This document shows, in pieces, positions 1-63,363 of a stretch of DNA of 64,000 bases (position 1 is the first letter of the stretch; every line of letters starts with the position of its first letter). A program made the translations under genes and the position numbers. The notes beneath the pieces were generated by a model that did not search any database, was not told the origin of the DNA, and was given only the letters and a program-made list of their open reading frames with translations. The DNA lies in contig CAMYNN010000009.1 in NCBI GenBank assembly GCA_947259735.1, positions 17,856 to 81,855 on the forward strand, in the 5' to 3' direction. Source of the DNA: Thermodesulfovibrionia bacterium (GTDB lineage: Bacteria > Nitrospirota > Thermodesulfovibrionia > UBA6902).

Positions 1-154
1 TTATTTGGTCTCTTCATCAACATATGCCGACTGCGATCGATTTCTACCACATCCCGATCTTTATCCGATTGTGGATCAATTAAGTACTGTGTAACAGAAT
101 ATTCGGTTAAGGTGATGTTAATGTTTGTAAAGAAGTGGTAAATTTTATGAAAGA

Positions 155-250
155 CAGGCAAGAGGCAAGAGGCTAGGGGCAAGAGGCTAGGGGCTAGAGG
201 CTAGGGGCGATAGGCACTGCTTCCCATTGCCCATGGCCTCTCGCCTCTAT
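155..250. repeat. Hairpin-forming intergenic repeat, copy A: octamer tandem array (GGCAAGAG/GCTAGGGG units) + spacer + inverted complement (CCCATGGCCTCTCGCCTCT)
   Basis: Direct reading: ggcaagaggcaagaggctaggggcaagaggctaggggctagaggctaggggcgataggc, then a 14-nt spacer, then cccatggcctctcgcctct, which is the reverse complement of the GGCGAGAGG/GGCCATGGG-type units. Shares a GGCCATGGGC core and gaggcgagagg with the copy at 10613-10780. Overlaps the last ~19 codons of the response-regulator CDS. Confidence 0.6.
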
Positions 251-895
251 AACGTATTCGGGATTTGAAGGGTCTTTTTCTATTTTTTGCCTCAGGTGCT
301 GAATATGCACGTCGATTACCCGGCTCCATGAGTAAATCTTTGAACCCTTCCAGATATTTTTTCTGATAGTCTCTCTGCTCACGACTTCACCGCGGTGATC
401 TACAAAAAAACAGAGAAGGCTGTATTCCTTCGGTGTGAGGTCTACGGTCTCCCCGGAAACAGTAACAATACGTTTTTTGTAATCAACATGAAGTTTCCCC
501 ACTGTGACTTTCCCCTTAAGAGCAGGAGCGGTTACCCTGCGGAGGCAGGCCTTTATCCTTGCCACCAGTTCAAGGGTCTCGAAAGGTTTTACAACGTAAT
601 CGTCTGCCCCGCTTTCAAGGCCGAATACCTTGTCCGAAACCTTGTCTTTTGCTGTAAGCATGATAACAGGGATTTCCGGCATCTCCTTTCTGAGAGAGCG
701 GCAAATTTCCATTCCATCTCCATCAGGAAGCATTACATCAAGAATAATCAGGTCAGGAACACTTTTTGTCAGCAATTCCCGGGCATCAGTCCAGTTTTCT
801 GAAGTAATAACTTCATAATGATGAAGCTCGAGGTTTGCCTTGACCACTTTCAATATGTCCCTGTCATCGTCAACGGCAAGTATCCTGTTACCCAT
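194..895 (-). CDS. OmpR/PhoB-family response regulator (receiver + winged-helix DNA-binding domain)
   Basis: 233-aa ORF. N-terminal receiver motifs (ILAVDDDRDIL...DLIILDVMLPDGDG...IPVIMLTAKD) and a C-terminal trans_reg_C-like region (VVKPFETLELVARIKACLRR ... KEYSLLCFFVDHRGEVVSRETI). The extreme C-terminus (WEAVPIAPSL) is encoded by the adjacent repeat element. Confidence 0.9.
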   Translation of the reverse strand: MGNRILAVDDDRDILKVVKANLELHHYEVITSENWTDARELLTKSVPDLIILDVMLPDGDGMEICRSLRKEMPEIPVIMLTAKDKVSDKVFGLESGADDYVVKPFETLELVARIKACLRRVTAPALKGKVTVGKLHVDYKKRIVTVSGETVDLTPKEYSLLCFFVDHRGEVVSRETIRKNIWKGSKIYSWSRVIDVHIQHLRQKIEKDPSNPEYVIEARGHGQWEAVPIAPSL

Positions 896-10482: not shown

Positions 10483-10612
10483 TTCAAATTCATGAAACGA
10501 GCAAAATTAACTAGATATAAGAATTATTATCAGAATTTGCTTCAATTGTCAAATTTAAAATCATTATAAATATTATAAAAATTGTTAATAGATTTTTTAG
10601 TGAGGAAAAAAA

Positions 10613-10780
10613 AGGCCAGGGGCAATAGGCAATAGGCAATAGGCAATAGGCAATAGGCAATAGGCAATAGGCAATAGGCAATAGGCAATAGGCAATAGGC
10701 CAGAGGCGAGAGGCGAGAGGGGAATAACCAGATACTATTGCATATCTTTTCCTCGCCCATGGCCTATTGCCCCTTGCCTG
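10613..10780. repeat. Hairpin-forming intergenic repeat, copy B: (GGCAATAG)x~11 + (GGCGAGAG)x2 array with terminal inverted repeats around a GGCCATGGGC core; T-runs on both sides (bidirectional terminator-like)
   Basis: Direct reading: aaggccaggg(gcaatagg)n ccagaggcgagaggcgagagggg ...cctcgcccatggcctattgccccttgcctgtttttt. The left end aggccaggggcaatagg is complementary to the right end cctattgccccttgcct. Preceded by gaggaaaaaaaa on the plus strand, which gives a U-tract for the minus-strand transcript. Lies between the gspE-like stop and the PilZ start. Confidence 0.7.
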
Positions 10781-10784
10781 TTTT

Positions 10785-12620
10785 TTAAATTATTCCCGTA
10801 ACCCTGATGATTTCATCAACAGTTGTTATACCCTTCAACAGTTTTTCCACGGCGCCTTCCTTAAGCGTGCGAAGACCTTCTTTTTTTGAGATCTGCTTTA
10901 TCATATCGGGAGTGGCTTTTTCTTCAATTGCTTCCCGTATCTTCTCTGAAATTTCCATGGCCTCAAAAACACCTGTTCTTCCCAGGTAGCCTGTTCCTCT
11001 GCATTGCGGACATCCTTTCCCTGAGGGAACTTCATATTTCCCGGCTGTGTCATAACTCAGACCAAGCATCCTGCAGTCATCTTCAGACAGGGGATACATC
11101 TCAGCGCAATGACTGCACACCTTTCTAATGAGTCTCTGGGCAACTACTCCCGACAGTATTGAGTTGATGAGAAAAGGCTGTATTCCGAGGTCAATCAGCC
11201 GTGTAACGGTACTCGGGGCATCATTGGTGTGCAGTGTTGACATCACGAGATGCCCCGTGAGAGCCGCCTGCATTGCATTCGTCGCAGTCTCGTAATCCCG
11301 TATTTCACCGACCATGATAACATCCGGGTCCTGCCGGAGAATTGTCCGGAGACTGCTCGCGAATGTAGTTCCCAGCTGGGGCTGTATTGATATCTGGTTG
11401 AATTCTTCATACACCATCTCAACAGGGTCTTCTATAGTAGTGAGATTTACATCAGGTGTTGAAAGCGTCTTGAGTGCAGAATAAAGAGTTGTTGTTTTCC
11501 CGCTGCCTGTCGGTCCAGTTACGAGAATAAGACCGTAAGGAGCAGAAATCAATGATCTGAAAATGTTTAATTCTCTTTGTGACATTCCAAGTTCATCAAC
11601 TTGCTGCATCAGGATAGCCGGATCAAATATCCTCATGACAATCTTTTCTCCAAAGGCAACGGGGAGAGTGGAAACACGAAGTTCTATTTCTTTTCCATCC
11701 TGGACAGTCTTGATCCTGCCATCCTGGGGTCTTCTTTTTTCAGCAATATCCATCCGTGAAAGTGTTTTGATCCGTGAAGCAAATGCGGGGAATACCGCCT
11801 TCGGCATTTTGTGAATTGTATGGAGAACACCGTCAATCCTGAAACGCACAAGGCAGTGTTCCCTCTTTGGTTCAATGTGTATGTCCGATGCCCTCTGGGA
11901 ATATGCATAGCGCAGGAGATACTCAACGGCATTGATTATGTGCTGATCGTTTGCCCCGAGTTCCTGGACCGATTTCAGCTTTACATACTGTTCCAGATTA
12001 CCGAGGTCATTCTGAGACGAGAGTTCGTCCTGGGCGGCCGTTATGGATAATTGAAAGCCGTAGAACTCGGTAATAATCTTCATTATGTCCGACCGTGACG
12101 ATACAACTATCTCTATATCATATCCCTTCGACTGTTTAATTCTGTCTATTCCTTCACGATCAAAGGGGTTTGATGTTGCAATGACCAGAGTGTTTCCGGC
12201 AACGCTGATCGGCACAAGCTCGTGCCGCAGCGCATAGGGCTTTGAAATGATTTTAGTCACCACATCAGAATCAAGCTTCAGGGGGTCTATTTTCAGATAG
12301 GGCAGTCCAAAGTGCTTCGCAATCTCCTTCACGATGATATCTTCCGTAATATTCTGACCATTCCCGTTGACCGGCAGGTGCATGGATTCAATAATGTCTA
12401 TTATTGAAATATCAGAATGACGGATCGTCCCCGATGGAACACCTGCACCCTTTGCCTCCCTTGACTTAAGGATTCTCATACGGAACATGTCTTCCTTCGA
12501 CAAAATGTCCCCGACCTGCCTTTCCGATAAAAGGCCTGCCGATAAAAGTATATTCAACACGTTTTCTTTGGTTTTCCTGCTCATAGTGACAACATTATTC
12601 TTTCTGCCTGAACAAGGCAT
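10785..12620 (-). CDS. GspE/PilB/MshE-family secretion ATPase with N-terminal T2SSE_N (MshEN-like) domain
   Basis: 611 aa. Walker [10 protein letters not shown], Asp box, His box ([14 protein letters not shown]), tetracysteine CSHC...[14 protein letters not shown], and an N-terminal GspII_E_N-like domain. Orphan: no adjacent gspF or secretin. Confidence 0.9.
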
Positions 12621-12811
12621 AGATAAAGGGTTGCACCCTATTTGTCCGGCTCACATTCCGCCCGCATTTATTGACTCTCCTTCTGTATATAGATATTTAA
12701 CGAGACAAGCAGCATAAACCTTTAATTTTTATATTTTCCTCTGCCAGAGAGCTGAAAGTTTAAAAAATAATGCTGTATTTTTATTCAGATGAGTAAGTAA
12801 AATTAAAGACT

Positions 12812-13495
12812 ATGAAAACGTACAGAAAACCAGCGGTTCTCCTGCTGACCATTCATCTCTTCATCTGTATCTCCTGCGCTGTTATTACCGCTCCCTACAA
12901 GGTTACAAAGGCTGTTCTGAAGGGGAGCATCTGGACCATCAGGGGAGCTTATGAACTGACTGCAGGTACAACAAAGCTTGTCTACAGTGTAGGCAAATTC
13001 ACCTTTCATGTTGTCCGGGCTCCTCTGGAGTGGCCCCTCATAAATGATGATATCGAAGCGATTGACGGTCTCCCCGTGAAGGAGGCTATACGTCAGGGTC
13101 GTGTGAAGAATTCTCCCTACACGGTAAAAGGGAAACGATACTATCCTATGTCTGTGATGGAGTCAAAGAAGTACAACGAGGTGGGTATTGCCTCCTGGTA
13201 CGGCCACGAGACTCTGCGGCAGAAGGGAGGCCATATGACCGCAAATGGTGAAAAGTTCAGTCCCTACGCCCTGACAGCAGCTCACAAGCACCTGCCTCTC
13301 CCTACGAACGTAAAAGTCACTAACCTCAGTAATAACCGGGCAATAGTAGTCAGGGTGAACGACCGAGGTCCCTTTCCGAGCAGAAACAATCCTAACTCGG
13401 GAAAGAGAATTATCGATCTCAGTATGAATGCAGCAAAGAAACTCGGTTTTTATCGCAATGGTACGGCCAGGGTCCGCGTGGAAGTTATCAGTTAA
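12812..13495 (+). CDS. rlpA: Septal ring lytic transglycosylase RlpA-family lipoprotein (double-psi beta-barrel)
   Basis: 227 aa. Lipoprotein signal (LFICISC). DPBB motif IASWYGHETLRQKGGHMTANGEKFSPYALTAAHKHLPLPTNVKVTNLSNNRAIVVRVNDRGPF. Confidence 0.85.
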   Translation: MKTYRKPAVLLLTIHLFICISCAVITAPYKVTKAVLKGSIWTIRGAYELTAGTTKLVYSVGKFTFHVVRAPLEWPLINDDIEAIDGLPVKEAIRQGRVKNSPYTVKGKRYYPMSVMESKKYNEVGIASWYGHETLRQKGGHMTANGEKFSPYALTAAHKHLPLPTNVKVTNLSNNRAIVVRVNDRGPFPSRNNPNSGKRIIDLSMNAAKKLGFYRNGTARVRVEVIS

Positions 13496-15859: not shown

Positions 15860-16366
15860 TTATTGTGACACCAGATCCTTTACCATGCTCTCCGGTCTAT
15901 CCACTGACAGCAAAAAAGGTCTGCCATTTCGTTGTTCGATGAAGATGAAGCTGTCAATCCTTGTTATATAGAAGCGGATGAATCCCCGTTTTCGACTCCA
16001 GAGGAGACCAAATCCGCCGAACAGCCCGCCCACCCCTATTCTCACTGCGAAGCCGATTTCCTTCTTCACCTGGTCTTTATCAAGTGTACGAACTCCGACA
16101 ATACCGGCTCTCGCTATATGGAACTTTCTCAAGGGCCAGACTATTGTCAAACCTGTGCTGTCTACAATATAATGAGACGGTCTCATCCAGAGCCAGACAC
16201 CGATCATGAGAAGAACAAAGAACAGTGCTATCGGAATCAGCGGTGTATTATGATCAGTAAGGGCGAAATAGATAAGGAGAAGAGGGACTGCTGCAATGAC
16301 ATACGTAATCACCCTGATTGAGCCCGACATGGGCGGGGTCCTGTATGTTGATGCTCGTTCCCTCAT
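15860..16366 (-). CDS. Membrane protein with bacterial PH-like (bPH_2/DUF304-type) domain
   Basis: ORF 15860..16432. The upstream transporter ORF ends at 16363, so the probable start is an internal Met (MRER at 16366 or MSGS at 16330). Two TM helices followed by a PH-like fold (PSHYIVDSTGLTIVWPLRKFHIARAGIVGV). Confidence 0.5.
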   Translation of the reverse strand: MRERASTYRTPPMSGSIRVITYVIAAVPLLLIYFALTDHNTPLIPIALFFVLLMIGVWLWMRPSHYIVDSTGLTIVWPLRKFHIARAGIVGVRTLDKDQVKKEIGFAVRIGVGGLFGGFGLLWSRKRGFIRFYITRIDSFIFIEQRNGRPFLLSVDRPESMVKDLVSQ

Positions 16367-17346
16367 TCGGCCCGAATACCGTCTTTCCTTCTCTGTAAGA
16401 TACCATATTTCCTGTTCAGACCCGCAAACCACACTGCTGACTGCTGCTGAATAAGAAATGCAAGTGCGACCATCATAGTCGTTTGCGGGCCGAATGCAGA
16501 GGCTGCAAGACCGATGGAAATGGCGAGGTTTCTTAAGACAAGACTGAGTACAAGGGTTATCCCGTCAACGTCACTGAAAGACTTTCTGGCCACAGTAATG
16601 ACGGTTAAATAAATCAGGATGTAAAATATTACAAGTGCCGTCAGCCCTTTCAGGAGAAGTCCCGGATATGCAATGATCATTTGGGCCTTCAGGCTGATAC
16701 TGGTAAAGATTATATAGATAAGCCCCCACGAACTGATACCGGGAAGGAGAGGCCGTATGCGTGAATTAAATTCTTCCTCCGTTAATCTCTTCATCAAAAC
16801 GCTATATGTTAATATCCCCATTCCCATAGGAAGAAAAACGACAACTGCAATGTTCTTGAATACATTCACAATATCCACGGGGACATATTTTCCAACAATA
16901 AAATAAAGATAGAGTGGTGCAAGGAATGAACCGGTAACGAGGCTGACCGTCGTAAGCTTTATAGCCGCTTTCACATTGCCTTTAAAAAGCATCGTAAATG
17001 CAATAATCATGGTGCCCCCGGGTACAACGGATATGATGATCAGGCCGGTAAACAGCTCAGGATATTGCTGAAGAAAGACAAAACCTGTTATGCAGGCAAT
17101 AAGAGGGATAATAAACAGATTAAAGAGGAGATTGAACAACAGTATCCTTTTTTCTTTCAATAGGGCAAGATCGCTGAACCTGAATCCTATCATGGAAGGA
17201 TAAATGGTACAGATGATAACGGGCAGCATAAAGCTCTTCAGCGGCTCAGTATCAATAAAATATCCTGATATCAGACCGGCAATAATGACGGAAGGGAGGA
17301 TGTATTTAAGATTTCTTGATGGAAATGTCAGTATTTTCCTGATCAA
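16363..17346 (-). CDS. Polytopic membrane transporter, bile acid:sodium symporter (BASS)/ACR3-like family
   Basis: 327 aa, about 10 predicted TM helices, composition and length typical of the BASS/SBF family. No soluble domains. Confidence 0.55.
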   Translation of the reverse strand: MIRKILTFPSRNLKYILPSVIIAGLISGYFIDTEPLKSFMLPVIICTIYPSMIGFRFSDLALLKEKRILLFNLLFNLFIIPLIACITGFVFLQQYPELFTGLIIISVVPGGTMIIAFTMLFKGNVKAAIKLTTVSLVTGSFLAPLYLYFIVGKYVPVDIVNVFKNIAVVVFLPMGMGILTYSVLMKRLTEEEFNSRIRPLLPGISSWGLIYIIFTSISLKAQMIIAYPGLLLKGLTALVIFYILIYLTVITVARKSFSDVDGITLVLSLVLRNLAISIGLAASAFGPQTTMMVALAFLIQQQSAVWFAGLNRKYGILQRRKDGIRAE

Positions 17347-17541
17347 TTATGACCTCTTTCGGGTTTCTGCAGATAATTATACAGGAATGGCTGAATATAC
17401 ATTCTTAGCATCCGTCTGCAATCAGCCGTCGGCCGTCAGCGACCAGCTTTCAGCATAAGACTGACAGGGCTGCCGTGGCTGAGGCAGTGTCCCATTAGCA
17501 CTCATATATTTTTGCTCTGAGGTAGTACGGAAGGTTCGCTA

Positions 17542-17739
17542 AAAATGAACGTCGAACGTCCAACATCCAACGTTCAACATCGAATTAAAAAAATAAACTT
17601 CCAATACCGAATATTCAATACTTGTTTTTTCACCCAGCCGTTTTAATAAGCGAAGCAAAAATCTAAATTAATTCTTCTTTTCCTTCATTTTTCCATTCAA
17701 CATTCAATGTTGGACGTTGGACGTTCGATGTTCATTTTT
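17542..17739. repeat. Large imperfect inverted repeat (arms ~44 bp built from NCAACRT heptamer tandem repeats) flanking a ~108-bp AT-rich loop; MITE-like or structured regulatory element
   Basis: Left arm aaaatgaacgtcgaacgtccaacatccaacgttcaacatcgaat (17542-17585). Right arm attcaacattcaatgttggacgttggacgttcgatgttcatttt (17694-17737). The outer ~30 bp are complementary with 2 mismatches. Lies in the divergent promoter region between the transporter and the dsrE-like gene. Confidence 0.7.
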
Positions 17740-17911
17740 CAAAAGATCCTAGTACGGCATAAACTCTAATCGTGAATGTTTACAATACAGCTTAGCATTT
17801 ATGGGGCAATGCCTCATTCTAATTATTATTAATGACACTTTTGTTTTAAGTGTTACAATAATTAAGCAACGTGATTGTTTACTAATAAAACGCCTTTTCA
17901 GGAGAGCCCGC

Positions 17912-18268
17912 ATGAAACGTCTAAAAGTACTGTTTCACATTAATGAAATCGAAAGATGGGACACAGCCCTCGGAAATATTATCAATCTCCTGAAGGATGT
18001 GGGAGAAGACGCGGTCGATGCGGTGGTCCTCGGGAATGGTCCTTCTATTAATGCCTATGGTAATGAGACTAAACTGTCGGTAATGAAAGGCCTCTCCGAA
18101 AGAGGTGTCAGATTTCTTGCCTGCAGAAATTCTCTGCGAAAAATGTGCTCATCAGGTGATTCCTGTATTGCAGAAGATGCCCTCTCTTCATTCATAGAGG
18201 TCGTTCCTGCCGGTATTACTGCGATAATCAGAATTCAGTCCGATGGTTATGCCTATGTCAAGCCCTAG
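17912..18268 (+). CDS. DsrE/DsrF-like family protein (DrsE_2-type sulfur-relay-like fold)
   Basis: 118 aa from the ATG at 17912 (RBS ggagag). The longer ORF from 17801 is probably an artefactual extension. MKRLKVLFHINEIERW ... VVLGNGPSINAY ... RFLACRNSL, with a conserved Cys in the ACRNS context. Confidence 0.65.
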   Translation: MKRLKVLFHINEIERWDTALGNIINLLKDVGEDAVDAVVLGNGPSINAYGNETKLSVMKGLSERGVRFLACRNSLRKMCSSGDSCIAEDALSSFIEVVPAGITAIIRIQSDGYAYVKP

Positions 18269-18277
18269 AGAATGTCT

Positions 18278-18360
18278 GGGGTCAAACCTTCAATATTCAT
18301 TTATAAAATACTTTATGAATAATAGTAATCTTGAAAATTGAATTATGAAGGTTTGACCCC
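18278..18360. terminator. Bidirectional hairpin between convergent genes (15-bp perfect stem GGGGTCAAACCTTCA / TGAAGGTTTGACCCC, AT-rich loop with a nested inverted repeat)
   Basis: Read directly. Lies between the dsrE-like stop (18268) and the VKOR-Trx stop (18376). Confidence 0.6.
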
Positions 18361-18375
18361 ATGGATTCTCTCCCG

Positions 18376-19311
18376 TCATTGGGTACTGACATAACCTGAA
18401 AGAGCTGACAACCGCTCAGGAGTGAGTACCCCCTGATATGTTTGCCCTCCAACAATCCATGTAGGGTACGAGTTAATTCTATTCTTTATGCAGACAGCGG
18501 CCTTCGGTCCTGATCGCCCCTGTGGAGAGCATTCCACGTAGGGCACTCTGTCTACTGATGCCTCGAACAGATCCTTCTGTTCCACGCAGGCCGGTCACCA
18601 ATAGGCACCGTACATAACTGCATTTTCCTTTGAGAGATGGAGAGCCAATCCCTTCAAAAAGGGATCTTCCGGGCCGGCCGAAGAATCGAAAACACCACTG
18701 TAATGTAAATGCATACCCCCGATGAGCAGCATGGTCACGACAACTGTCTCTCCCGCCCAGGTTGTAAATTTAAAGGTGCGCAATCCAGCCGGCCGCTGGG
18801 AAATTACCACCCCGAATATGACAGCCATAATTGTAAGCGAAGCGAGGCAGTAAGCACACAGAGCCTCAATCACAAAAAGAGAAATTGCATTGAGATAAAC
18901 ACTGTAGCACAGGCCCAGCAAAGAGAATGCCCAGGCCCACTTCCAGTGCTTCTCCCGATCGCGGACCCGGAACCCGATATGCCCCAACACTGCATAGGTC
19001 AGGAAACCAAGGAAAGCTGTCGGCACACCGAGGAAGGTACCCCACCGGCTTTGCTGAACGATGTCGCAGGAGCTTCCATCATCGCAGTACAAAGGTGCCT
19101 GATCCAGCAAGGATGTAATTACAAGGTACGCTGTTAACACCATCCCGACTACGGCCAATGCTGTCAGTGGCCAGTTTGGACGTTCCCGCCTCTGCGGAAC
19201 CGTATGACGCTTCTTCTTTTTCTGCGCTACCGCTTTTTCCTGAGACGCCATCTCTGTCTGATTCGAGGGCTTCTCCTGAGGAGGCTTCTGGCGTTTTCTT
19301 TTTTTACCCAA
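18376..19311 (-). CDS. Vitamin K epoxide reductase (VKOR)-thioredoxin-like fusion; candidate selenoprotein with in-frame TGA (Sec) replacing the first Cys of the Trx CxxC motif (U-P-A-C)
   Basis: The ORFs at 18595..19311 (VKOR: loop Cys pair CDDGSSC, TM CxxC = CAYC) and 18376..18585 (Trx-like tail VEQKDLFEASVDRVPYVECSP...YPTWIVGGQTYQGV) are in the SAME frame, separated only by TGA-CCG-GCC-TGC. The read-through gives ...MYGAYW-U-PAC-VEQKDLFE. This matches, as far as I recall, the GAYWCPHCQEQKELF junction of cyanobacterial VKOR-Trx proteins, with U aligned to the first Cys. A small hairpin (AACAGAAGGAUCUGUU) lies ~14 nt downstream of the UGA. Confidence 0.65.
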
Positions 19312-21489: not shown

Positions 21490-22497
21490 TCACTCCCAGA
21501 CTCCTTCAATTCTCTCCGTGCAGCGGGGACAGGCACTGACTGACATTTTATTCTGTAGAATCTGAAAACCGAAACGCTCTATGAGGAGTTCGCTGCAGGC
21601 CGGACAATAGGTGCTCTCCCCTCCCTCCCCGGGGACATTGCCTTCATATACATACTTCAGGCCTCTTTCAACACCCATGTTCTTCGCCATCCTTAATGTA
21701 TGCACAGGAGTTCTGGGCTGATCCAGAATTTCATGGGTAGGATAAAACTGGCTCACATGCCAGGGCATGGCCGCATCTACTGATTTAATGAATTCAATTA
21801 TACCTTCACAGGATTCTACAGAATCATTGTATGCAGGTATAATCAGGGTCGTAAGTTCGACCCACACTCCAAGTTCCTTCATCAGCTTTATCGTGTCTAA
21901 AACAGGCTGTAACCGAGCATTGCATATTTTCTTATAAAATTCATCATTACCTTTCAAGTCGATATTATTCCCATCAAGGTAGGGTGCTATAGCCCTGGTT
22001 GCTTCAGCAGATGTATATCCATTGCTGACGAAAACATTCTTTATTCCTTTTTCGTGTGCAAGACGTGCGCAGTCGTAGGCAAACTCGAAAAACACAGTTG
22101 GTTCCGTATATGTATAGGATATGCTTCTGCATCCAACGCTCTCTGCAGCATGAACAACTTGTTCAGGAGATACAGATTCTCCCGGGATGTCTGCATGTAT
22201 TTTTGAATACTGAGCGATATCATAGTTCTGACAGTGCCTGCACCGGAAATTGCATCCCACGGTTGATATAGACAGTGATTTAGATGAGGGAAGAAAATGA
22301 AACAGGGGCTTCTTCTCTATGGGATCTATATTCATTGAAATAAGTTTGCCGTACACAAGAGAATAGAGTGTCCCTCCCCTGTTTTCTCTTACACAACAAA
22401 TGCCTCTCTTGCCATTATTGATACTGCAATGGTGAGCACAGAGAAAACACCTTACTTTCATTCCCTTCATCTTCTCATAAAACATTGCCTCTTTCAT
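21490..22497 (-). CDS. AmmeMemoRadiSam-system radical SAM enzyme (PFL-activase-like)
   Basis: 335 aa. N-terminal Cys-rich region (CFLCAHHC), radical-SAM CNFRCRHC (CxxxCxxC), C-terminal CPAC...CPRC. Overall length and motifs match the AmmeMemoRadiSam radical SAM family. Confidence 0.8.
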   Translation of the reverse strand: MKEAMFYEKMKGMKVRCFLCAHHCSINNGKRGICCVRENRGGTLYSLVYGKLISMNIDPIEKKPLFHFLPSSKSLSISTVGCNFRCRHCQNYDIAQYSKIHADIPGESVSPEQVVHAAESVGCRSISYTYTEPTVFFEFAYDCARLAHEKGIKNVFVSNGYTSAEATRAIAPYLDGNNIDLKGNDEFYKKICNARLQPVLDTIKLMKELGVWVELTTLIIPAYNDSVESCEGIIEFIKSVDAAMPWHVSQFYPTHEILDQPRTPVHTLRMAKNMGVERGLKYVYEGNVPGEGGESTYCPACSELLIERFGFQILQNKMSVSACPRCTERIEGVWE

Positions 22498-22800: not shown

Positions 22801-23346
22801 ATGTTAGAAAAACTTTTTACATCGGGAATCAGGGCTGACATCATGTCACTTCTTTTCAATAATCCTGAAGAGAAGTTTTATGTTAGAGAGATAGCCAGGC
22901 TTATCAGTAAAAATCCTTCGGGAGTAAAAAGAGAGCTTGATAAACTTCTCAAGATGGATCTTGTTTTAACTGAAAGGGAAGGCAATCTTAAATATTTTAC
23001 GGTAAACAGGAACTCCCCTCTCTTTCCCGAACTCAAAGGTTTGATTGCAAAATCCCTTGGTCTTCCCGGTGCACTTAAATCTGTACTGAAAGCATCGGAG
23101 GCAAAGTCAGCCTTTATTTACGGCCCCTACGTAAATAATGCAAACCGTTCTTCCCTTGACCTGTTTGTTGTTTCCGATTCAAATCATATTCGAAAAACAC
23201 TTGATGATATAGAAAAAAGATTCGGGAGAGAAATTAACCTTACGTTAATGAATCTTTTAGATTATAAGTCCAAGAAAAAGAGCGGAGACCGTAAGCTCAA
23301 GAAGCTTATCACCGCGAAAAAGATAGTACTTCTTGGAAGACTATAA
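22801..23346 (+). CDS. Winged-helix HTH + minimal nucleotidyltransferase (Pol-beta fold) domain protein
   Basis: 181 aa. N-terminal HTH-like region (YVREIARLISKNPSGVKRELDKL). NTase signature FIYGPYVNNANRSSLDLFVVSD (hG[GS]-x-D-x-D pattern). Confidence 0.55.
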   Translation: MLEKLFTSGIRADIMSLLFNNPEEKFYVREIARLISKNPSGVKRELDKLLKMDLVLTEREGNLKYFTVNRNSPLFPELKGLIAKSLGLPGALKSVLKASEAKSAFIYGPYVNNANRSSLDLFVVSDSNHIRKTLDDIEKRFGREINLTLMNLLDYKSKKKSGDRKLKKLITAKKIVLLGRL

Positions 23347-23387: not shown

Positions 23388-23663
23388 ATGGCCGCCAAGA
23401 AAAAAGCCGCTGCAAAAAAGAAAAAGACTACCGCTAAGAAGAAAACTACTGCGAAGAAGAAAACTACTGCGAAAAAGAAAACTACTGCTAAGAAGAAAAC
23501 TGCGAAGAAGAAGACTACTGCGAAAAAGAAAACTACCGCTAAGAAGAAAACTACTGCTAAGAAGAAAACTGCTGCGAAAAAGAAAACTACCGCTAAAAAG
23601 AAAACTACTGCTAAGAAGAAGACTGCAAAAAAGAAAACTGCTGCGAAAAAGAGAAGAAGATAG
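23388..23663 (+). CDS. Lysine-rich histone H1-like / Hc1-like nucleoid protein composed of (KKTTAKK)n repeats
   Basis: 91 aa. MAAKKKAAAKKKKTTAKKKTTAKKK... encoded by a 21-nt tandem DNA repeat. RBS aagggggtg. Followed by a clear intrinsic terminator. Antisense ORFs of 132 and 134 aa over the same repeat are artefacts. Confidence 0.65.
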   Translation: MAAKKKAAAKKKKTTAKKKTTAKKKTTAKKKTTAKKKTAKKKTTAKKKTTAKKKTTAKKKTAAKKKTTAKKKTTAKKKTAKKKTAAKKRRR

Positions 23664-32436: not shown

Positions 32437-32598
32437 TTCATATAACGTAATGGATAGAACTTTGTTTCAATCACCAATAAATAAATAATGACCAATAATG
32501 TGATAACAATATTCATGACTTCAAAGTTTATTGATACTTCGGTCATGGGACATGGAAATTTATTCGTAATTCGTAATTCGTAATTTTCTTTTAATAGT

Positions 32599-37338: not shown

Positions 37339-38172
37339 ATGTTCAATATCTTAAAGAAGGAGGAATTGTCAGAGCAGATAACGTTATTTGAGATCTCTGC
37401 AAAAGACATCGCGAATAAGGCAAAGCCGGGTAATTTTTTTATGCTCAGGACTCATGAGCAGGGAGAAAGGGTTCCTTTAACCATTGCTGATTTTGACAGG
37501 GACAGAGGGACCATAACAGCTGTGTTTCAGAAGGTCGGCAAGTCGACCAATCATCTGGGGTCCCTCAATGAAGGTGATTTTATACCCGATGTCACCGGTC
37601 CTCTCGGTAACCACTCCCACATAGATAATTTCGGCAGAGTTGTGTGCGTGGGAGGCGGCGTGGGGATCGCGCCTGTATACCCCATAGCAAAAGCGCTCAA
37701 AGAATCAGGCAATATCGTCACATCAATCATAGGTGCCCGTTCAAAATCAATTCTCTTTTGGGAAGAAAAGATGCGGAACGTATCTGACGAACTTATTATT
37801 ACCACCGATGACGGTTCCTACGGCACCAAGGCAACTGTAACCGCTCCCCTGGAAGATATTCTGAGCACCGAACAGGTCGACCTGGTCGTTGCCATCGGCC
37901 CTGCAGTCATGATGAAGTTCGTCTGCAAGACGACGGAAAAGTACAGAGTAAAAACGGTAGTCAGCCTCAATTCAATCATGATTGACGGGACGGGAATGTG
38001 CGGCGGCTGCAGGGTTGAAGTTGGAGGGGAGACAAAGTATACCTGTGTCGACGGCCCCGAATTTAATGGCCACGACGTGAACTTTGATCTGCTTATGAAC
38101 AGGCTGAAGGCGTATATTCCCCAGGAAAGTATAGCTTTGAACCGGGGAGGATCAACAGTGGAGGTCCAATAG
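37339..38172 (+). CDS. nfnA: NADH-dependent reduced ferredoxin:NADP+ oxidoreductase subunit A (NfnA / SudB; PyrK-like FAD + [2Fe-2S])
   Basis: 277 aa. FAD/NAD-binding fold (VCVGGGVGIAPVYPIAKAL). C-terminal Cys cluster (GTGMCGGCRVEVGGETKYTCVDGPEF). Followed by the gltD-like partner. Confidence 0.8.
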   Translation: MFNILKKEELSEQITLFEISAKDIANKAKPGNFFMLRTHEQGERVPLTIADFDRDRGTITAVFQKVGKSTNHLGSLNEGDFIPDVTGPLGNHSHIDNFGRVVCVGGGVGIAPVYPIAKALKESGNIVTSIIGARSKSILFWEEKMRNVSDELIITTDDGSYGTKATVTAPLEDILSTEQVDLVVAIGPAVMMKFVCKTTEKYRVKTVVSLNSIMIDGTGMCGGCRVEVGGETKYTCVDGPEFNGHDVNFDLLMNRLKAYIPQESIALNRGGSTVEVQ

Positions 38173-38174
38173 AT

Positions 38175-39605
38175 ATGGAATTAAAGACAGAGGAGAAAAG
38201 CACACATCATAGAGTGGAAATGAGGGAACAGGCACCTCTGGTACGGGCACGGAATTTCAAGGAGGTTCCTTTTGGATATACCCCTGATGAAGCAGTCGAG
38301 GAGGCATCAAGATGCAAGACATGCAAGAAAGGCGTCTGCAGGACAGGGTGCCCCGTTGAAGTAGATATTCCCGGATTTATAGAACTGATAAAAGAAAGAA
38401 AATTCCTCGATGCCTGCTACAGGGTAAAGGAGAAAAATGCCCTGCCGGCTGTCTGCGGAAGGGTATGCCCCCAGGAAAGACAGTGCGAATCACGCTGCCT
38501 GCTGGGCAAGACGGGAAAGCCCGTTGCGATTGGAAACCTGGAGAGATTTGTTGCTGATTATGAGGCAGAGAAGGGTAACATGAGAATTCCTGAAAGACCG
38601 GATCCCACAGGGAGAAAAGTCGCAGTCATTGGCTCCGGTCCGGGAGGCCTGACATGTGCAGTCGATCTTGCAATGGCCGGACATCAGGTCACCTTATATG
38701 AGGCATTTCATGAAGCGGGAGGGGTATTAGTTTACGGTATACCCGAGTTCAGGCTTCCCAAGGCAATTGTGAAAAGAGAGGTCGAGTATATAAAGAAGCT
38801 GGGTATCGAGCTTAAACTCAATGTGGTAATTGGAAAACTCCACACCATTGATGAATTACTGAATGGCAAGGGATATGATGCATGCTTTATTTGTACAGGT
38901 GCAGGACTGCCCATGTTTTTAGGAATACCGGGTGAAAACCTTAATGGTGTCTGCTCTGCAAATGAATATCTGACAAGGGCCAATCTTATGAAGGCCTATC
39001 TCTTTCCCGAATATGAAACACCCATAAAAGTAGGCACGAAAGTCGCTGTACTGGGTGGAGGCAATGTTGCCATGGATGCTGCACGGGTAGCATTAAGGCT
39101 TGGCGCGGAAAAGGTCTATCTTATTTACCGCCGCTCCGAGGACGAGATGCCTGCAAGAAAAGCGGAAGTACACCATGCACGCGAGGAAGGCATTGAGCTT
39201 TTACTCCTGACAAACCCGACAAGATACATTGATGACGGGAATGGGAATCTCTGCGGACTTGAATGCATCAGTATGAACCTCGGCGAACCGGATGAATCAG
39301 GCAGGAGAAGGCCCGTTCCGATCAAGGGCAGCGAGTTTCAAATCCCCGTAGATGTAGCAATCCCCGCATTAGGGGCCAAAGCAAATCCGCTTCTCACAAG
39401 AACAATGTCGGATTTAACCGTAAATAAAGGCGGCTATATTACCGCTGAAGACGGGACTGGCATGACATCGAAGAAGGGTGTATTCGCAGGTGGAGATATT
39501 GTCACAGGTGCTGCAACGGTTATCTCGGCTATGGGAGCAGGAAGGAGGACAGCGAATGCAATCAACGAGTATCTCAAATGGAATCACTGGGAGTTTAACG
39601 CATAG
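38175..39605 (+). CDS. nfnB: NfnB / SudA / GltD-like subunit (glutamate synthase small-chain family; 2x[4Fe-4S], FAD, NADPH)
   Basis: 476 aa. N-terminal Cys motifs (CKTCKKGVCRTGCPV, CGRVCPQERQCESRC). Two dinucleotide-binding motifs VAVIGSGPGGL and VAVLGGGNVAMD. Confidence 0.85.
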   Translation: MELKTEEKSTHHRVEMREQAPLVRARNFKEVPFGYTPDEAVEEASRCKTCKKGVCRTGCPVEVDIPGFIELIKERKFLDACYRVKEKNALPAVCGRVCPQERQCESRCLLGKTGKPVAIGNLERFVADYEAEKGNMRIPERPDPTGRKVAVIGSGPGGLTCAVDLAMAGHQVTLYEAFHEAGGVLVYGIPEFRLPKAIVKREVEYIKKLGIELKLNVVIGKLHTIDELLNGKGYDACFICTGAGLPMFLGIPGENLNGVCSANEYLTRANLMKAYLFPEYETPIKVGTKVAVLGGGNVAMDAARVALRLGAEKVYLIYRRSEDEMPARKAEVHHAREEGIELLLLTNPTRYIDDGNGNLCGLECISMNLGEPDESGRRRPVPIKGSEFQIPVDVAIPALGAKANPLLTRTMSDLTVNKGGYITAEDGTGMTSKKGVFAGGDIVTGAATVISAMGAGRRTANAINEYLKWNHWEFNA

Positions 39606-62679: not shown

Positions 62680-63363
62680 CTACTTCTCTTCCACTTTTTT
62701 CTCTTCTTTCGAGTCTTCCTCTTTTCCTTTTCCCTTCACAAGTTCGGGCTCCGCAGCCTCTTCTTCAGCACCTTCAGCCGGCACTTCCTCTTCAATAACA
62801 GGGGCACTGACCAGCAGAATAACTTCTGACGGATCGGTAATTATTTTCACCCCTTCCGGAACTGAAAGATCACTGACGTGAAGAGAATTTCCTATTTCTA
62901 TAAATTCAGCATCAACTTCAATCTTGTCCGGTATCTGCATAGGGAGACATTCTACCTCAATTTCCCTTAACCGGTTTTGTAAAATACCCCCCATTTTAAC
63001 TCCTGCAGGTTTTTTAATGATATCGATCAGAACGGTCACAGTGACTACTTCTTTCAGTGACACTTCCATGAAGTCAACATGCAGAATTTCTTCAGAGACA
63101 GGGTCTCTCTGATAATCCTTGATCAGCACAGGATGTTCCGATGTCTTGGTCCCATCCTCACTGAGCTCAATAGTAATGAGGGAATGCTGCCCCCCCTCAC
63201 CTGAATAAATGAGACCTGTCATCTGTTTTCCCGGAACCTTGATCGGTGTTGAATTGCCCCCGGAGTAAAAAACAGCGGGGAGCATCCCTGCTCTTCTCAA
63301 AGTGCGGGCGCTCCCTTTGCCTATTTCAGGTCTTTTATCTGCTTTAATTAATATTTTTTCCAT
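62680..63363 (-). CDS. rplY: 50S ribosomal protein L25 / general stress protein Ctc (with charged C-terminal extension)
   Basis: 227 aa. ADKRPEIGKGSARTLRRAGMLPAVFYSGG typical L25/Ctc. Lys/Glu-rich tail. Confidence 0.9.
   Translation of the reverse strand: MEKILIKADKRPEIGKGSARTLRRAGMLPAVFYSGGNSTPIKVPGKQMTGLIYSGEGGQHSLITIELSEDGTKTSEHPVLIKDYQRDPVSEEILHVDFMEVSLKEVVTVTVLIDIIKKPAGVKMGGILQNRLREIEVECLPMQIPDKIEVDAEFIEIGNSLHVSDLSVPEGVKIITDPSEVILLVSAPVIEEEVPAEGAEEEAAEPELVKGKGKEEDSKEEKKVEEK

Follow-up and report, generated by a model that had tools for sequence, protein, structure and literature searches.

A Heptamer-Repeat Quasi-Palindrome between Divergent Genes of a Thermodesulfovibrionia Bacterium Occurs in Opposite Orientations in Conspecific Strains

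Introduction

In Xanthomonas campestris and X. axonopodis, arrays of the heptamer GGGAATC occur in intergenic DNA as inverted pairs, of which each genome has 70-75 (Rehm et al. 2015, PMC4692102). The lengths of these repeats are not conserved between species, and their function is unknown (PMC4692102). The subject of this report is a 199-bp element in a 64-kb stretch of DNA from a Thermodesulfovibrionia bacterium (the whole stretch is hereafter called the window). Like the Xanthomonas repeats, it consists of intergenic tandem units of 7 nt, and in Xanthomonas, too, there are often two convergent arrays able to form stem-loops or cruciforms. The Xanthomonas repeats, however, are built from one G-rich unit genome-wide and have G-quadruplex potential, whereas here the unit varies by locus and by lineage, the unit of the element (CAACRTY) has no G-runs, the arms are separated by a 95-nt spacer, and an inversion is documented. 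The STRRs of the cyanobacteria Calothrix and Nostoc are several kinds of tandem heptamers that are dispersed in intergenic DNA, mainly as direct arrays. They resemble the repeats described here in that different heptamers are dispersed within one lineage and in their unexplained preference for a period of 7; they differ in being mainly direct arrays and in belonging to a different phylum, and no homology is implied. The Xanthomonas inverted pairs and the cyanobacterial STRRs are the closest published analogues of the element. Heptamer direct repeats with the unit TAACTGA are also abundant between the genes of Beggiatoaceae, where a regulatory role has been proposed for them (MacGregor 2015, PMC4679880). 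These too are intergenic heptamer arrays, but there one unit forms short, direct arrays that immediately precede start codons, and only one inverted case has been reported, whereas the present element is an inverted pair that lies upstream of promoters.

Three other kinds of DNA segment invite comparison by virtue of their inverted repeats. Invertons, such as fimS-type switches and the invertible promoters of Bacteroides, have a dedicated invertase, an oriented internal promoter, and an identical sequence in both states. What the present element has in common with them is that a short intergenic segment bounded by inverted repeats occurs in both orientations; an invertase, an internal promoter, and identical states were not seen. 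The MITEs of the Correia/NEMIS type are intergenic foldbacks, 100-250 bp in size, that have an A/T-rich center between terminal inverted repeats, and they can donate -35 boxes. Their foldback anatomy is that of the element, and -35 donation was seen in two of its sister elements (see below), but MITEs are multi-copy, are flanked by adjacent target-site duplications, and are uniform in sequence, whereas the present unit was neither multi-copy nor flanked by adjacent duplications in the loci examined. Bacterial MITEs are among the subjects of a published review (PMC3184786). Finally, reports on plastid intergenic spacers include hairpin-associated small inversions between close relatives (PMC7393888, PMC6444266). 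These are the closest analogue of the flip described below, being attributable to recombination in the segment's own stem, without dedicated machinery or function, but plastid stems and loops are short and belong to a different genetic system, and here the arms flip along with the core.

A literature search found no description of such repeats for Nitrospirota or Thermodesulfovibrionia. The element belongs to a known kind, the heptameric SSR palindromes: it is intergenic and has at least two tandem 7-nt units in two convergent arrays close together. Its noteworthy extra feature is the documented inversion between strains.

Results

Anatomy of the Element

The sequence-only reading from which this work started had described a hairpin with heptamer arms around a loop of 108 nt. 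The hairpin is real: an inverted-repeat search returned a 199-bp palindrome, the strongest among the short-range inverted repeats of the window, whose arms of 52 nt each are 83% complementary and whose best-paired outer portion extends over about 33-44 nt. The loop needs restating, in that it corresponds to the 95-nt spacer together with the poorly paired inner ends of the arms. The coordinates of the element and of its surroundings are collected in Table 1.

Table 1. Features of the element, its flanks, and its sister elements (window positions)
Feature	Position	Strand	Remarks
Sister element W1, RGGCNAG heptamer array and complementary arm	153..253		Overlaps 3' end of response-regulator gene
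Sister element W2, (GGCAATA)11 with RGGCNAG units and complementary arm	10606..10786		Directly after stop codon of T2SSE ATPase gene
SBF/ACR3-like transporter gene, TTG start	16363..17346	-	Pfam PF01758, 1e-30
Likely extended -10 of SBF promoter, TGTATAAT	17376..17383	-	Outside element; inferred from conservation
Separate neighboring heptamer array, units GCTGAAA, GCTGGTC, GCTGACG, GCCGACG, GCTGATT	17415..17454	-	Homologous to L007 arrays
8-bp direct repeat TAGTACGG, copy 1	17524..17531	+	10 nt beyond left arm; longest flanking direct repeat
Left arm, A5 run then heptamers	17541..17592		Inverted-repeat search, TRF period 7, pattern count
Perfect terminal 10-mer AAAAATGAAC, left inversion breakpoint zone	17541..17550		Orientation switch inside 10-mer (alignments A2/A3)
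A/T-rich core (spacer), 95 nt	17593..17687		Without promoter, conserved motif, or credible ORF
Right arm, inverted copy of left arm, T5 run at end	17688..17739		Inverted-repeat search, TRF
Perfect terminal 10-mer GTTCATTTTT, right inversion breakpoint zone	17730..17739		Alignments with L013
8-bp direct repeat TAGTACGG, copy 2	17750..17757	+	10 nt beyond right arm; longest flanking direct repeat
Predicted DsrE promoter, ATGACA-16-TACAAT with TG	17832..17859	+	Outside element; consensus scan
DsrE-like gene, 118 aa	17912..18268	+	Pfam PF02635; 118-aa calls in relatives
VKOR gene	18595..19311	-	Convergent with DsrE, not co-transcribed with it

Each arm is composed of five to six degenerate CAACRTY heptamers, and TRF detected period-7 arrays in both (17548-17578, unit AACGTCC; 17709-17725, unit GTTGGAC). 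When the window was scanned with CAACGTCCAACRTYCAAC, a degenerate pattern spanning two-and-a-half heptamer units, seven overlapping matches were found at up to three mismatches, as compared with 0.12 expected, and none lay outside the arms. The left arm reads A5-TGAACGT-CGAACGT-CCAACAT-CCAACGT-TCAACAT-CGAAT, and the reverse complement of the right arm reads A5-TGAACAT-CGAACGT-CCAACGT-CCAACAT-TGAATGT-TGAAT. The order of the unit variants (T-GAAC, C-GAAC, C-CAAC, C-CAAC) is thus mirrored between the arms, which indicates that a single array was truly duplicated in inverted orientation and that the arms are not two independent arrays. The mismatches between the arms are mostly G/A transitions at the ACGT/ACAT position, and the arms appear to have diverged after the inverted duplication, mainly by such transitions.

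The predicted RNA folds of both strands are far more stable than those of shuffled sequences (-57.9 kcal/mol, z -7.8, for the plus strand and -77.3 kcal/mol, z -8.3, for the minus strand). The predicted fold of the element as single-stranded DNA has an energy of -31.5 kcal/mol (z -4.35 versus shuffles).

Two further interpretations of the sequence were considered and set aside. One was a small ORF of 33 aa starting with the ATG at 17546, of which L013 (see below) has a 34-aa version; it has no Shine-Dalgarno sequence, and five non-synonymous changes stand against three synonymous ones between the window and L013. The other was an integron attC site. An attC site is a hairpin of the form R''(RYYYAAC)...R'(GTTRRRY) at the 3' end of a cassette, in an array near intI. 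The heptamers GTCCAAC and GTTGGAC fit this low-information consensus by eye, but the context speaks against it: the genes on either side belong to the conserved, syntenic core in 10 genomes, no integrase was found in the window or in syntenic loci, and the element has a length of 199 bp and a loop of 95 nt.

Sister Hairpins and an Excess of Period-7 Arrays

The window contains two other repeat hairpins, W1 and W2, which form one family, as judged by the RGGCNAG units and the 11-mer GCCCATGGCCT that they have in common. The likeness of the element to these hairpins had been noted from the sequence, and the shared architecture holds, but their units are heptamers (RGGCNAG and GGCAATA) and not, as had been thought, octamers. 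The plan common to all of the elements is an A-run, a purine-rich heptamer arm, an A/T-rich spacer, a pyrimidine-rich complementary arm, and a T-run. This frame of A-run and T-run in every element suggests a common constraint (terminator-like) or a common mechanism, an observation that does not sit easily with the reading we favor in the Discussion. The RGGCNAG unit recurs at two loci of the window, whereas CAACRTY was found at the element alone in the window and in 39 kb of a sister strain.

Over 132 kb of sequence from the window and relatives, nine period-7 arrays were counted as compared with 0.5 expected, an enrichment of about 18-fold. Arrays with periods of 5 and 6 were at expectation in the same sequence, and periods of 8 and 9 were represented by one and three arrays, respectively. 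Differences between strains were seen as well. In L013, the GGCAATA array of W2 is four units shorter than in the window, and at W1 the two strains differ by swapped unit variants and by a 46-bp indel, which alters the C-terminal tail of the response regulator (233 aa versus 227 aa). Heptamer arrays are therefore both enriched in the clade and variable in unit number between strains.

The Element Is Inverted in a Conspecific Strain

Strains for comparison, L013 (GCA_947258725.1) and L014/L015 (GCA_945786855.1), were found via a cluster-mate of the transporter protein. L013 is syntenic with the window and about 98.6% identical to it. BLAST aligned positions 9490-9689 of L013 with 17541-17739 of the window in plus/plus orientation, whereas all of the flanks aligned plus/minus, and the inversion of the whole unit bounded by the inverted repeats was also seen in alignments A1-A3. 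The switch in orientation is located inside the perfect terminal 10-mers AAAAATGAAC and GTTCATTTTT, and in L013 the polymorphisms of the arms move together with the core. In this conspecific strain, then, the 199-bp unit as a whole is inverted, and the breakpoints fall within the terminal 10-mers. In the third strain (L014/L015), the element is identical to that of the window and has the same orientation; two contigs of that assembly end at the element, with an overlap of 121 nt.

The two orientations are not identical in sequence. After correction for the inversion, the element differs from that of L013 at 18 of 199 positions and by one indel (9%), and the core accounts for 10 of the substitutions and one indel in its 95 nt. 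The corresponding differences are 23 in 2000 positions for the 1-kb flanks and 5 in 366 for the intergenic flanks. At 4-fold sites, the mean divergence between the window and L013 is 2.7% (133/4864), and the excess in the element has a binomial p of 1e-5. This gap between 9% in the inverted allele and 2.7% at 4-fold sites is among the observations that run counter to our preferred reading. The difference of 9% between the orientations argues against frequent switching; flipping would be rare and not phase variation. A simple recent flip would fail to account for this divergence, which would instead call for an old inversion polymorphism or the import of a divergent allele. We had considered a balanced old inversion on the strength of the 9%, but the strain pair is a recombination mosaic, in which 4-fold divergence ranges from 0 to 26% per gene; this weakens that interpretation and makes an imported divergent allele as plausible as an old inversion polymorphism.

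In the arrays of the element itself, only substitutions were seen between the window and L013. The arms are 74% complementary in L013 as compared with 83% in the window, and the hairpin is weaker (-47/-61 versus -54/-75 kcal/mol). Judged from this comparison, the core and the pairing of the arms look weakly constrained at best.

Unrelated Hairpins at the Orthologous Site

With the transporter gene as query, we retrieved the orthologous loci of relatives from Thermodesulfovibrionia (Nitrospirota) MAGs and metagenomes; the transporter proteins of these relatives are 69-79% identical to that of the window. The intergenic region is 566 bp in the window and 190-280 bp in the relatives. Between the transporter (SBF) and DsrE-like genes, L001 and L002 have a homologous inverted repeat of GGTCAAG / GATTCAAGG units, and L010 and L016 have one composed of GACGAAT / TTGACGA units, of which a degenerate, non-palindromic remnant survives in L004. 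In L007, a direct CTGAMNG array is the only repeat element at the site; it is homologous to the neighboring array of the window (17415-17454). No repeat element is present there in L003 and L011. The same intergenic site, then, holds unrelated heptamer hairpins across lineages. Where the hairpins are related (L001 versus L002; L004 versus L010 versus L016), they have evolved in place, with homologous flanks and loops.

The sequence of the CAACRTY element was conserved at the orthologous site in no relative examined, and the element is species-specific. The nearest relative without it is L007, whose transporter protein is already 21% diverged. We found no intermediate that would document how the CAACRTY element came into being at this site, which counts against the local origin proposed below.

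Flanking Genes and Promoters

The element had been placed between a BASS-like transporter gene and dsrE-like/VKOR genes, in a divergent promoter region. The SBF and DsrE-like genes do diverge, but VKOR is convergent with DsrE. The TTG start of the transporter gene agrees with the GTG and TTG starts of its homologs. Its likely -10 sequence is kept in seven genomes, as TGTATAAT in the window, L001, L002, L004, L010, and L016 and as TGTATTAT in L007. Both likely promoters are outside the element, which would therefore lie between the divergent promoters, upstream of each of them, and in neither 5' UTR; this placement in a non-transcribed gap refines the earlier assignment to the promoter region. 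A consensus promoter scan found no promoter-like sites within 17541-17739. A weak candidate in the core (TTGAAT-17-TATTTT) and the palindrome GAATATTC are both lost in L013. The arms of the hairpins in L001 and L002 supply -35 boxes for the DsrE-like gene (TTGACC-17-TATGAT and TTGAAT-17-TATGAT), whereas those of the window do not.

Copies, Direct Repeats, and Machinery

No second CAACRTY copy was found in about 150 kb. The sequences covered were the 64-kb window (at up to three mismatches) and 39 kb more of the sister strain, which together make up about 100 kb of this species, and the loci of nine relatives; 12 loci were searched for the arm, and those retrieved later were covered by repeat scans. 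Nor was there a target-site duplication abutting the ends of the element. The longest flanking direct repeat is TAGTACGG (p about 0.002 versus shuffled flanks), and its symmetric copies 10 nt outside both ends hint at an insertion event, contrary to a local origin. We considered TAGTACGG as a target-site duplication and demoted it for three reasons: a distance of 10 nt separates it from either end, the linkers of 10 nt do not form an inverted repeat, and linkers and direct repeats alike keep their position when the unit inverts in L013. A significant flanking direct repeat was found at none of seven sister elements.

Recombinase or transposase Pfam domains were absent from the large ORFs of the window, the gene calls of L013, L018, and L019, by which the survey is extended 19 kb to each side, likewise included none, and Resolvase and Phage_integrase had no match in about 100 kb of the window and syntenic loci.

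RNA-Level Features

Rfam returned no matches at gathering thresholds in the whole window, and in E-value mode the region 17300-18000 gave only chance matches to plant-miRNA hairpins, far below threshold. Five terminator-like sites were found at the element as compared with 0.5 expected, each arm folding on itself with an outward T-run next to it; this number follows from an ACGT-containing unit in an A5/T5 frame. The full stem is unlike an intrinsic terminator in that it has a 95-nt loop, and both neighboring genes point away from it. When fold energies were compared for both strands of nine elements, the transcribed strand, where known, was never the more stable of the two. We accordingly rejected selection at the RNA level, because the transcribed strand is not favored.

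Discussion

The best-supported reading of these observations is that heptamer-array hairpins form a class whose members would arise in the A/T-rich DNA between the genes of this Thermodesulfovibrionia clade, expand there, undergo inverted duplication, and be turned over. The element would be one member of this clade-wide class: a lineage-specific heptanucleotide-SSR quasi-palindrome of local origin that flips by recombination between its arms and has little or no dedicated function. We give this specific account roughly an even chance of being right. Its last part, little function, is argued from non-conservation and is offered as a suggestion. Under this account, the arrays would grow by replication slippage, since mismatch repair would miss loops of 7 nt. 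Fold-back or template-switch copying may have given rise to the second arm, and the flip may be due to an intramolecular event between the two arms, either recombination or strand switching. If the element acts at all, it would do so at the DNA level only; in the non-transcribed gap between divergent promoters, negative supercoiling could favor fold-back. Since the element would carry no dedicated regulatory signal, its effect on the transporter and DsrE-like genes is probably small or nil. Of the three functions proposed from the sequence, none is borne out in its original form. One was a site for a repeat-binding regulator, but this proposal does not fit a sequence that is conserved in no relative examined and a core that looks unconstrained between strains.

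Two of the other explanations we weighed treat the element as DNA on which a recombination enzyme acts. It had been suggested to be a MITE, and we regard a MITE-like or foldback mobile element as unlikely. On this explanation, the element would be non-autonomous, its subterminal arrays would be binding sites for a transposase, and the L013 allele would be another family member or a re-insertion. The long terminal inverted repeats, small size, A/T-rich core, lack of coding capacity, and species-specific presence are all those of a MITE, the intergenic region is longer than in relatives, and the 9% by which the alleles differ is a typical distance for separate copies within a repeat family. What mainly keeps the idea alive is the symmetric 8-bp direct repeat, together with the dispersed RGGCNAG/GCCCATGGCCT family of W1 and W2. 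But these direct repeats stand off the ends of the inverted repeats, with linkers that are not complementary and are immobile under inversion, and the absence of a second copy, of an adjacent duplication, and of a transposase in the sequences surveyed tells against the suggestion, as does the evolution of related hairpins in place. A programmed inverton strikes us as quite unlikely. Here a recombinase encoded elsewhere would flip the 199-bp unit at the terminal 10-mers, redirecting a signal in the core to the transporter or to the DsrE-like gene, with the heptamers as accessory binding sites. The occurrence in nature of both orientations of a segment bounded by inverted repeats, the confinement of the breakpoints to the 10-mers, the position of the element exactly between two divergent genes, and the break in the contigs of the third assembly with their overlap are what would be expected, and there are precedents with trans-acting invertases. 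Against it, flipping appears rare given the divergence of the orientations, no promoter in the core passes the scan and the one weak candidate is destroyed in the other allele, both genes retain their own promoters outside the element, and no invertase gene was found next to it or elsewhere in about 100 kb of syntenic sequence.

At the RNA level, the long hairpin could be a bidirectional intrinsic terminator or insulator, or a processed small RNA, as the sequence-only reading had also allowed in proposing a structured ncRNA. We judge this very unlikely. The A5-stem...stem-T5 frame is present on both strands and brings with it the excess of terminator-like sites, the predicted RNA is very stable, above all on the minus strand, and W2 and the nfnA-nfnB hairpins (see below) sit in transcribed 3' or intercistronic positions. 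The flanking genes diverge, however, so that none of the known transcripts runs into the element; the scan gave no promoter within it or facing it; no Rfam family matches; its loop is far beyond the norm for intrinsic terminators; the transcribed strand of the sister elements folds no better than the antisense strand; and the pairing of the arms has decayed in L013. A last possibility, and in our estimate a long shot, is that the hairpins of the clade are substrates of an unrecognized trans-acting recombinase or foldback transposase that would read tandem 7-nt units and, at fixed intergenic sites, put hairpins in place, rewrite them, and flip them; 17541-17739 would then be a slow genetic switch or a mobile cassette between the transporter and DsrE-like genes.

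If the local-origin account holds, what it offers is mainly a caution and a description: an STRR-like load of heptamer-repeat palindromes would be present in the MAGs of Thermodesulfovibrionia. Such palindromes change in unit number, are replaced, and flip between strains; they break assemblies, alter the 3' ends of genes (W1), and can donate -35 boxes (L001, L002). Their annotation as regulators, MITEs, or sRNAs needs further evidence. The clade would join cyanobacteria and Xanthomonas as a third bacterial lineage in which repeats of 7 nt are preferred for reasons as yet unexplained. Should the inversion prove to be enzyme-driven, it would be the first inverton-like switch in the phylum Nitrospirota.

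Orthologous sites let the birth and turnover of heptamer hairpins be followed. A second site, the spacer between nfnA and nfnB, behaves like the first. It is only 2 nt long in the window; in L001 and L010 it holds a hairpin of GTGAYNA units whose two arms show paired changes, and in L002 an unrelated GGNTTCAA octamer hairpin lies between identical flanks.

Repeat arrays and hairpins in the window, the sister strain and relatives

A (GGCAATA)n array in W2, one of two sister heptamer hairpins in the window, lies immediately 3' of the stop codon of the T2SSE ATPase gene and is shorter by four units (28 nt) at L013, the corresponding locus of a sister strain, the boundary unit of the array being likewise unlike in the two. 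The length difference is SSR copy-number variation between strains. The other sister hairpin, W1, overlaps the 3' end of an OmpR-type response regulator gene and encodes its final ~12 codons as well as its stop codon; the gene product is 233 amino acids long in the window and 227 in the sister strain. There (locus L018), the counterpart of W1 carries an additional 46-bp segment, and the AGGCTAG and GGGCTAG units are swapped relative to the window.

Hairpins of heptamer or octamer units also occupy the spacer of an nfnA–nfnB-like operon in relatives (loci L001, L010, and L002), a spacer of only 2 nt in the window. The differences between the L001 and L010 hairpins are paired changes in both arms, and the L002 hairpin is wholly different from that of the other relatives, with shared flanks.

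Arrays without an inverted partner were also seen: (ATTCGTA)3.4, shortly 5' of the T2SS F gene, and, between a transporter gene and ruvX at L007 (a relative), adjacent direct arrays of GCTGANN and ACGGAYY. An 18-nt-period tandem repeat, AAGAAGAAAACTACTGCT, is present in ~12 copies within a lysine-rich small ORF region, adjoins an ArsR-like HTH gene, and gave numerous self-hits in the comparison with L013.

Coordinates of the features discussed
Feature	Window	Other loci
W1 hairpin	153-253	L018 10610-10850
OmpR-type response regulator gene	194-895 (-)	
(GGCAATA)n array	10621-10720	L013 16606-16684
Segment 5' of DPBB gene	12742-12769	L013 14519-14588
57-nt indel	15134	L013 12097-12152
Near-palindrome	17480-17496, 17801-17817	L017 ~20-40
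Contig overlap	17498-17618	L014 1-121, L015 1-121
Small ORF	17546-17647 (+)	
Hairpin 3' of DsrE	18267-18371	
ArsR-like HTH gene	22801-23346	
AAGAAGAAAACTACTGCT repeat	23418-23652	
(ATTCGTA)3.4 array	32562-32585	
nfnA–nfnB-like spacer	38172-38175	L001 6320-6400, L010 6170-6240, L002 12830-12940
GCTGANN and ACGGAYY arrays	 	L007 3530-3640
Inverted repeat	 	L019 2276-2428
Four high-divergence genes	974-2707, 12812-13495, 21490-22497, 62680-63363	

The palindromic element and its surroundings

Within the heptamer-repeat palindrome is an ORF of 33 codons whose start codon is the ATG in the left terminal 10-mer; a 34-codon version of this ORF is retained at L013. Because the ORF has no Shine–Dalgarno sequence and shows five non-synonymous versus three synonymous differences between the window and L013, it is probably not a gene.

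The interval that separates the DsrE gene from the convergent VKOR gene holds a hairpin with 41-nt arms (80% complementary) and a 23-nt loop, placed immediately 3' of the DsrE stop codon; it lacks heptamer units and is not inverted at L013. This hairpin is probably the terminator of both genes. Beyond the window, at sister-strain locus L019, two convergent genes are separated by a further inverted repeat with a long spacer (89 nt) and 32-nt arms that are 78% complementary; like the palindromic element it has GAAAAATG at its start and CATTTTTC at its end, but it lacks heptamer units.

Two copies of the near-palindrome ATGGGRCAnTGCCTCA, ~305 nt apart, flank the whole intergenic region that holds the element; in a relative (L017), TGGGGCAGAGCCCCA stands at the DsrE-proximal position. 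In a third strain (GCA_945786855.1), two contigs, L014 and L015, stop at or within the element, their ends sharing exactly 121 nt. The overlap suggests an unresolved assembly-graph branch, which could stem from strain mixture or from structural heterogeneity.

Mosaic divergence between strains

Divergence at 4-fold sites between the window and L013, L018, and L019 is 0-3% for most genes and reaches 19.5% for a histidine kinase, 25.7% for the DPBB lytic transglycosylase, 12.6% for ribosomal protein L25, and 10.9% for a radical SAM gene. The mosaic pattern suggests that segments were imported by recombination. The strains also differ by a 57-nt indel 3' of a TIR-domain gene and by replacement of an intergenic segment 5' of the DPBB gene.
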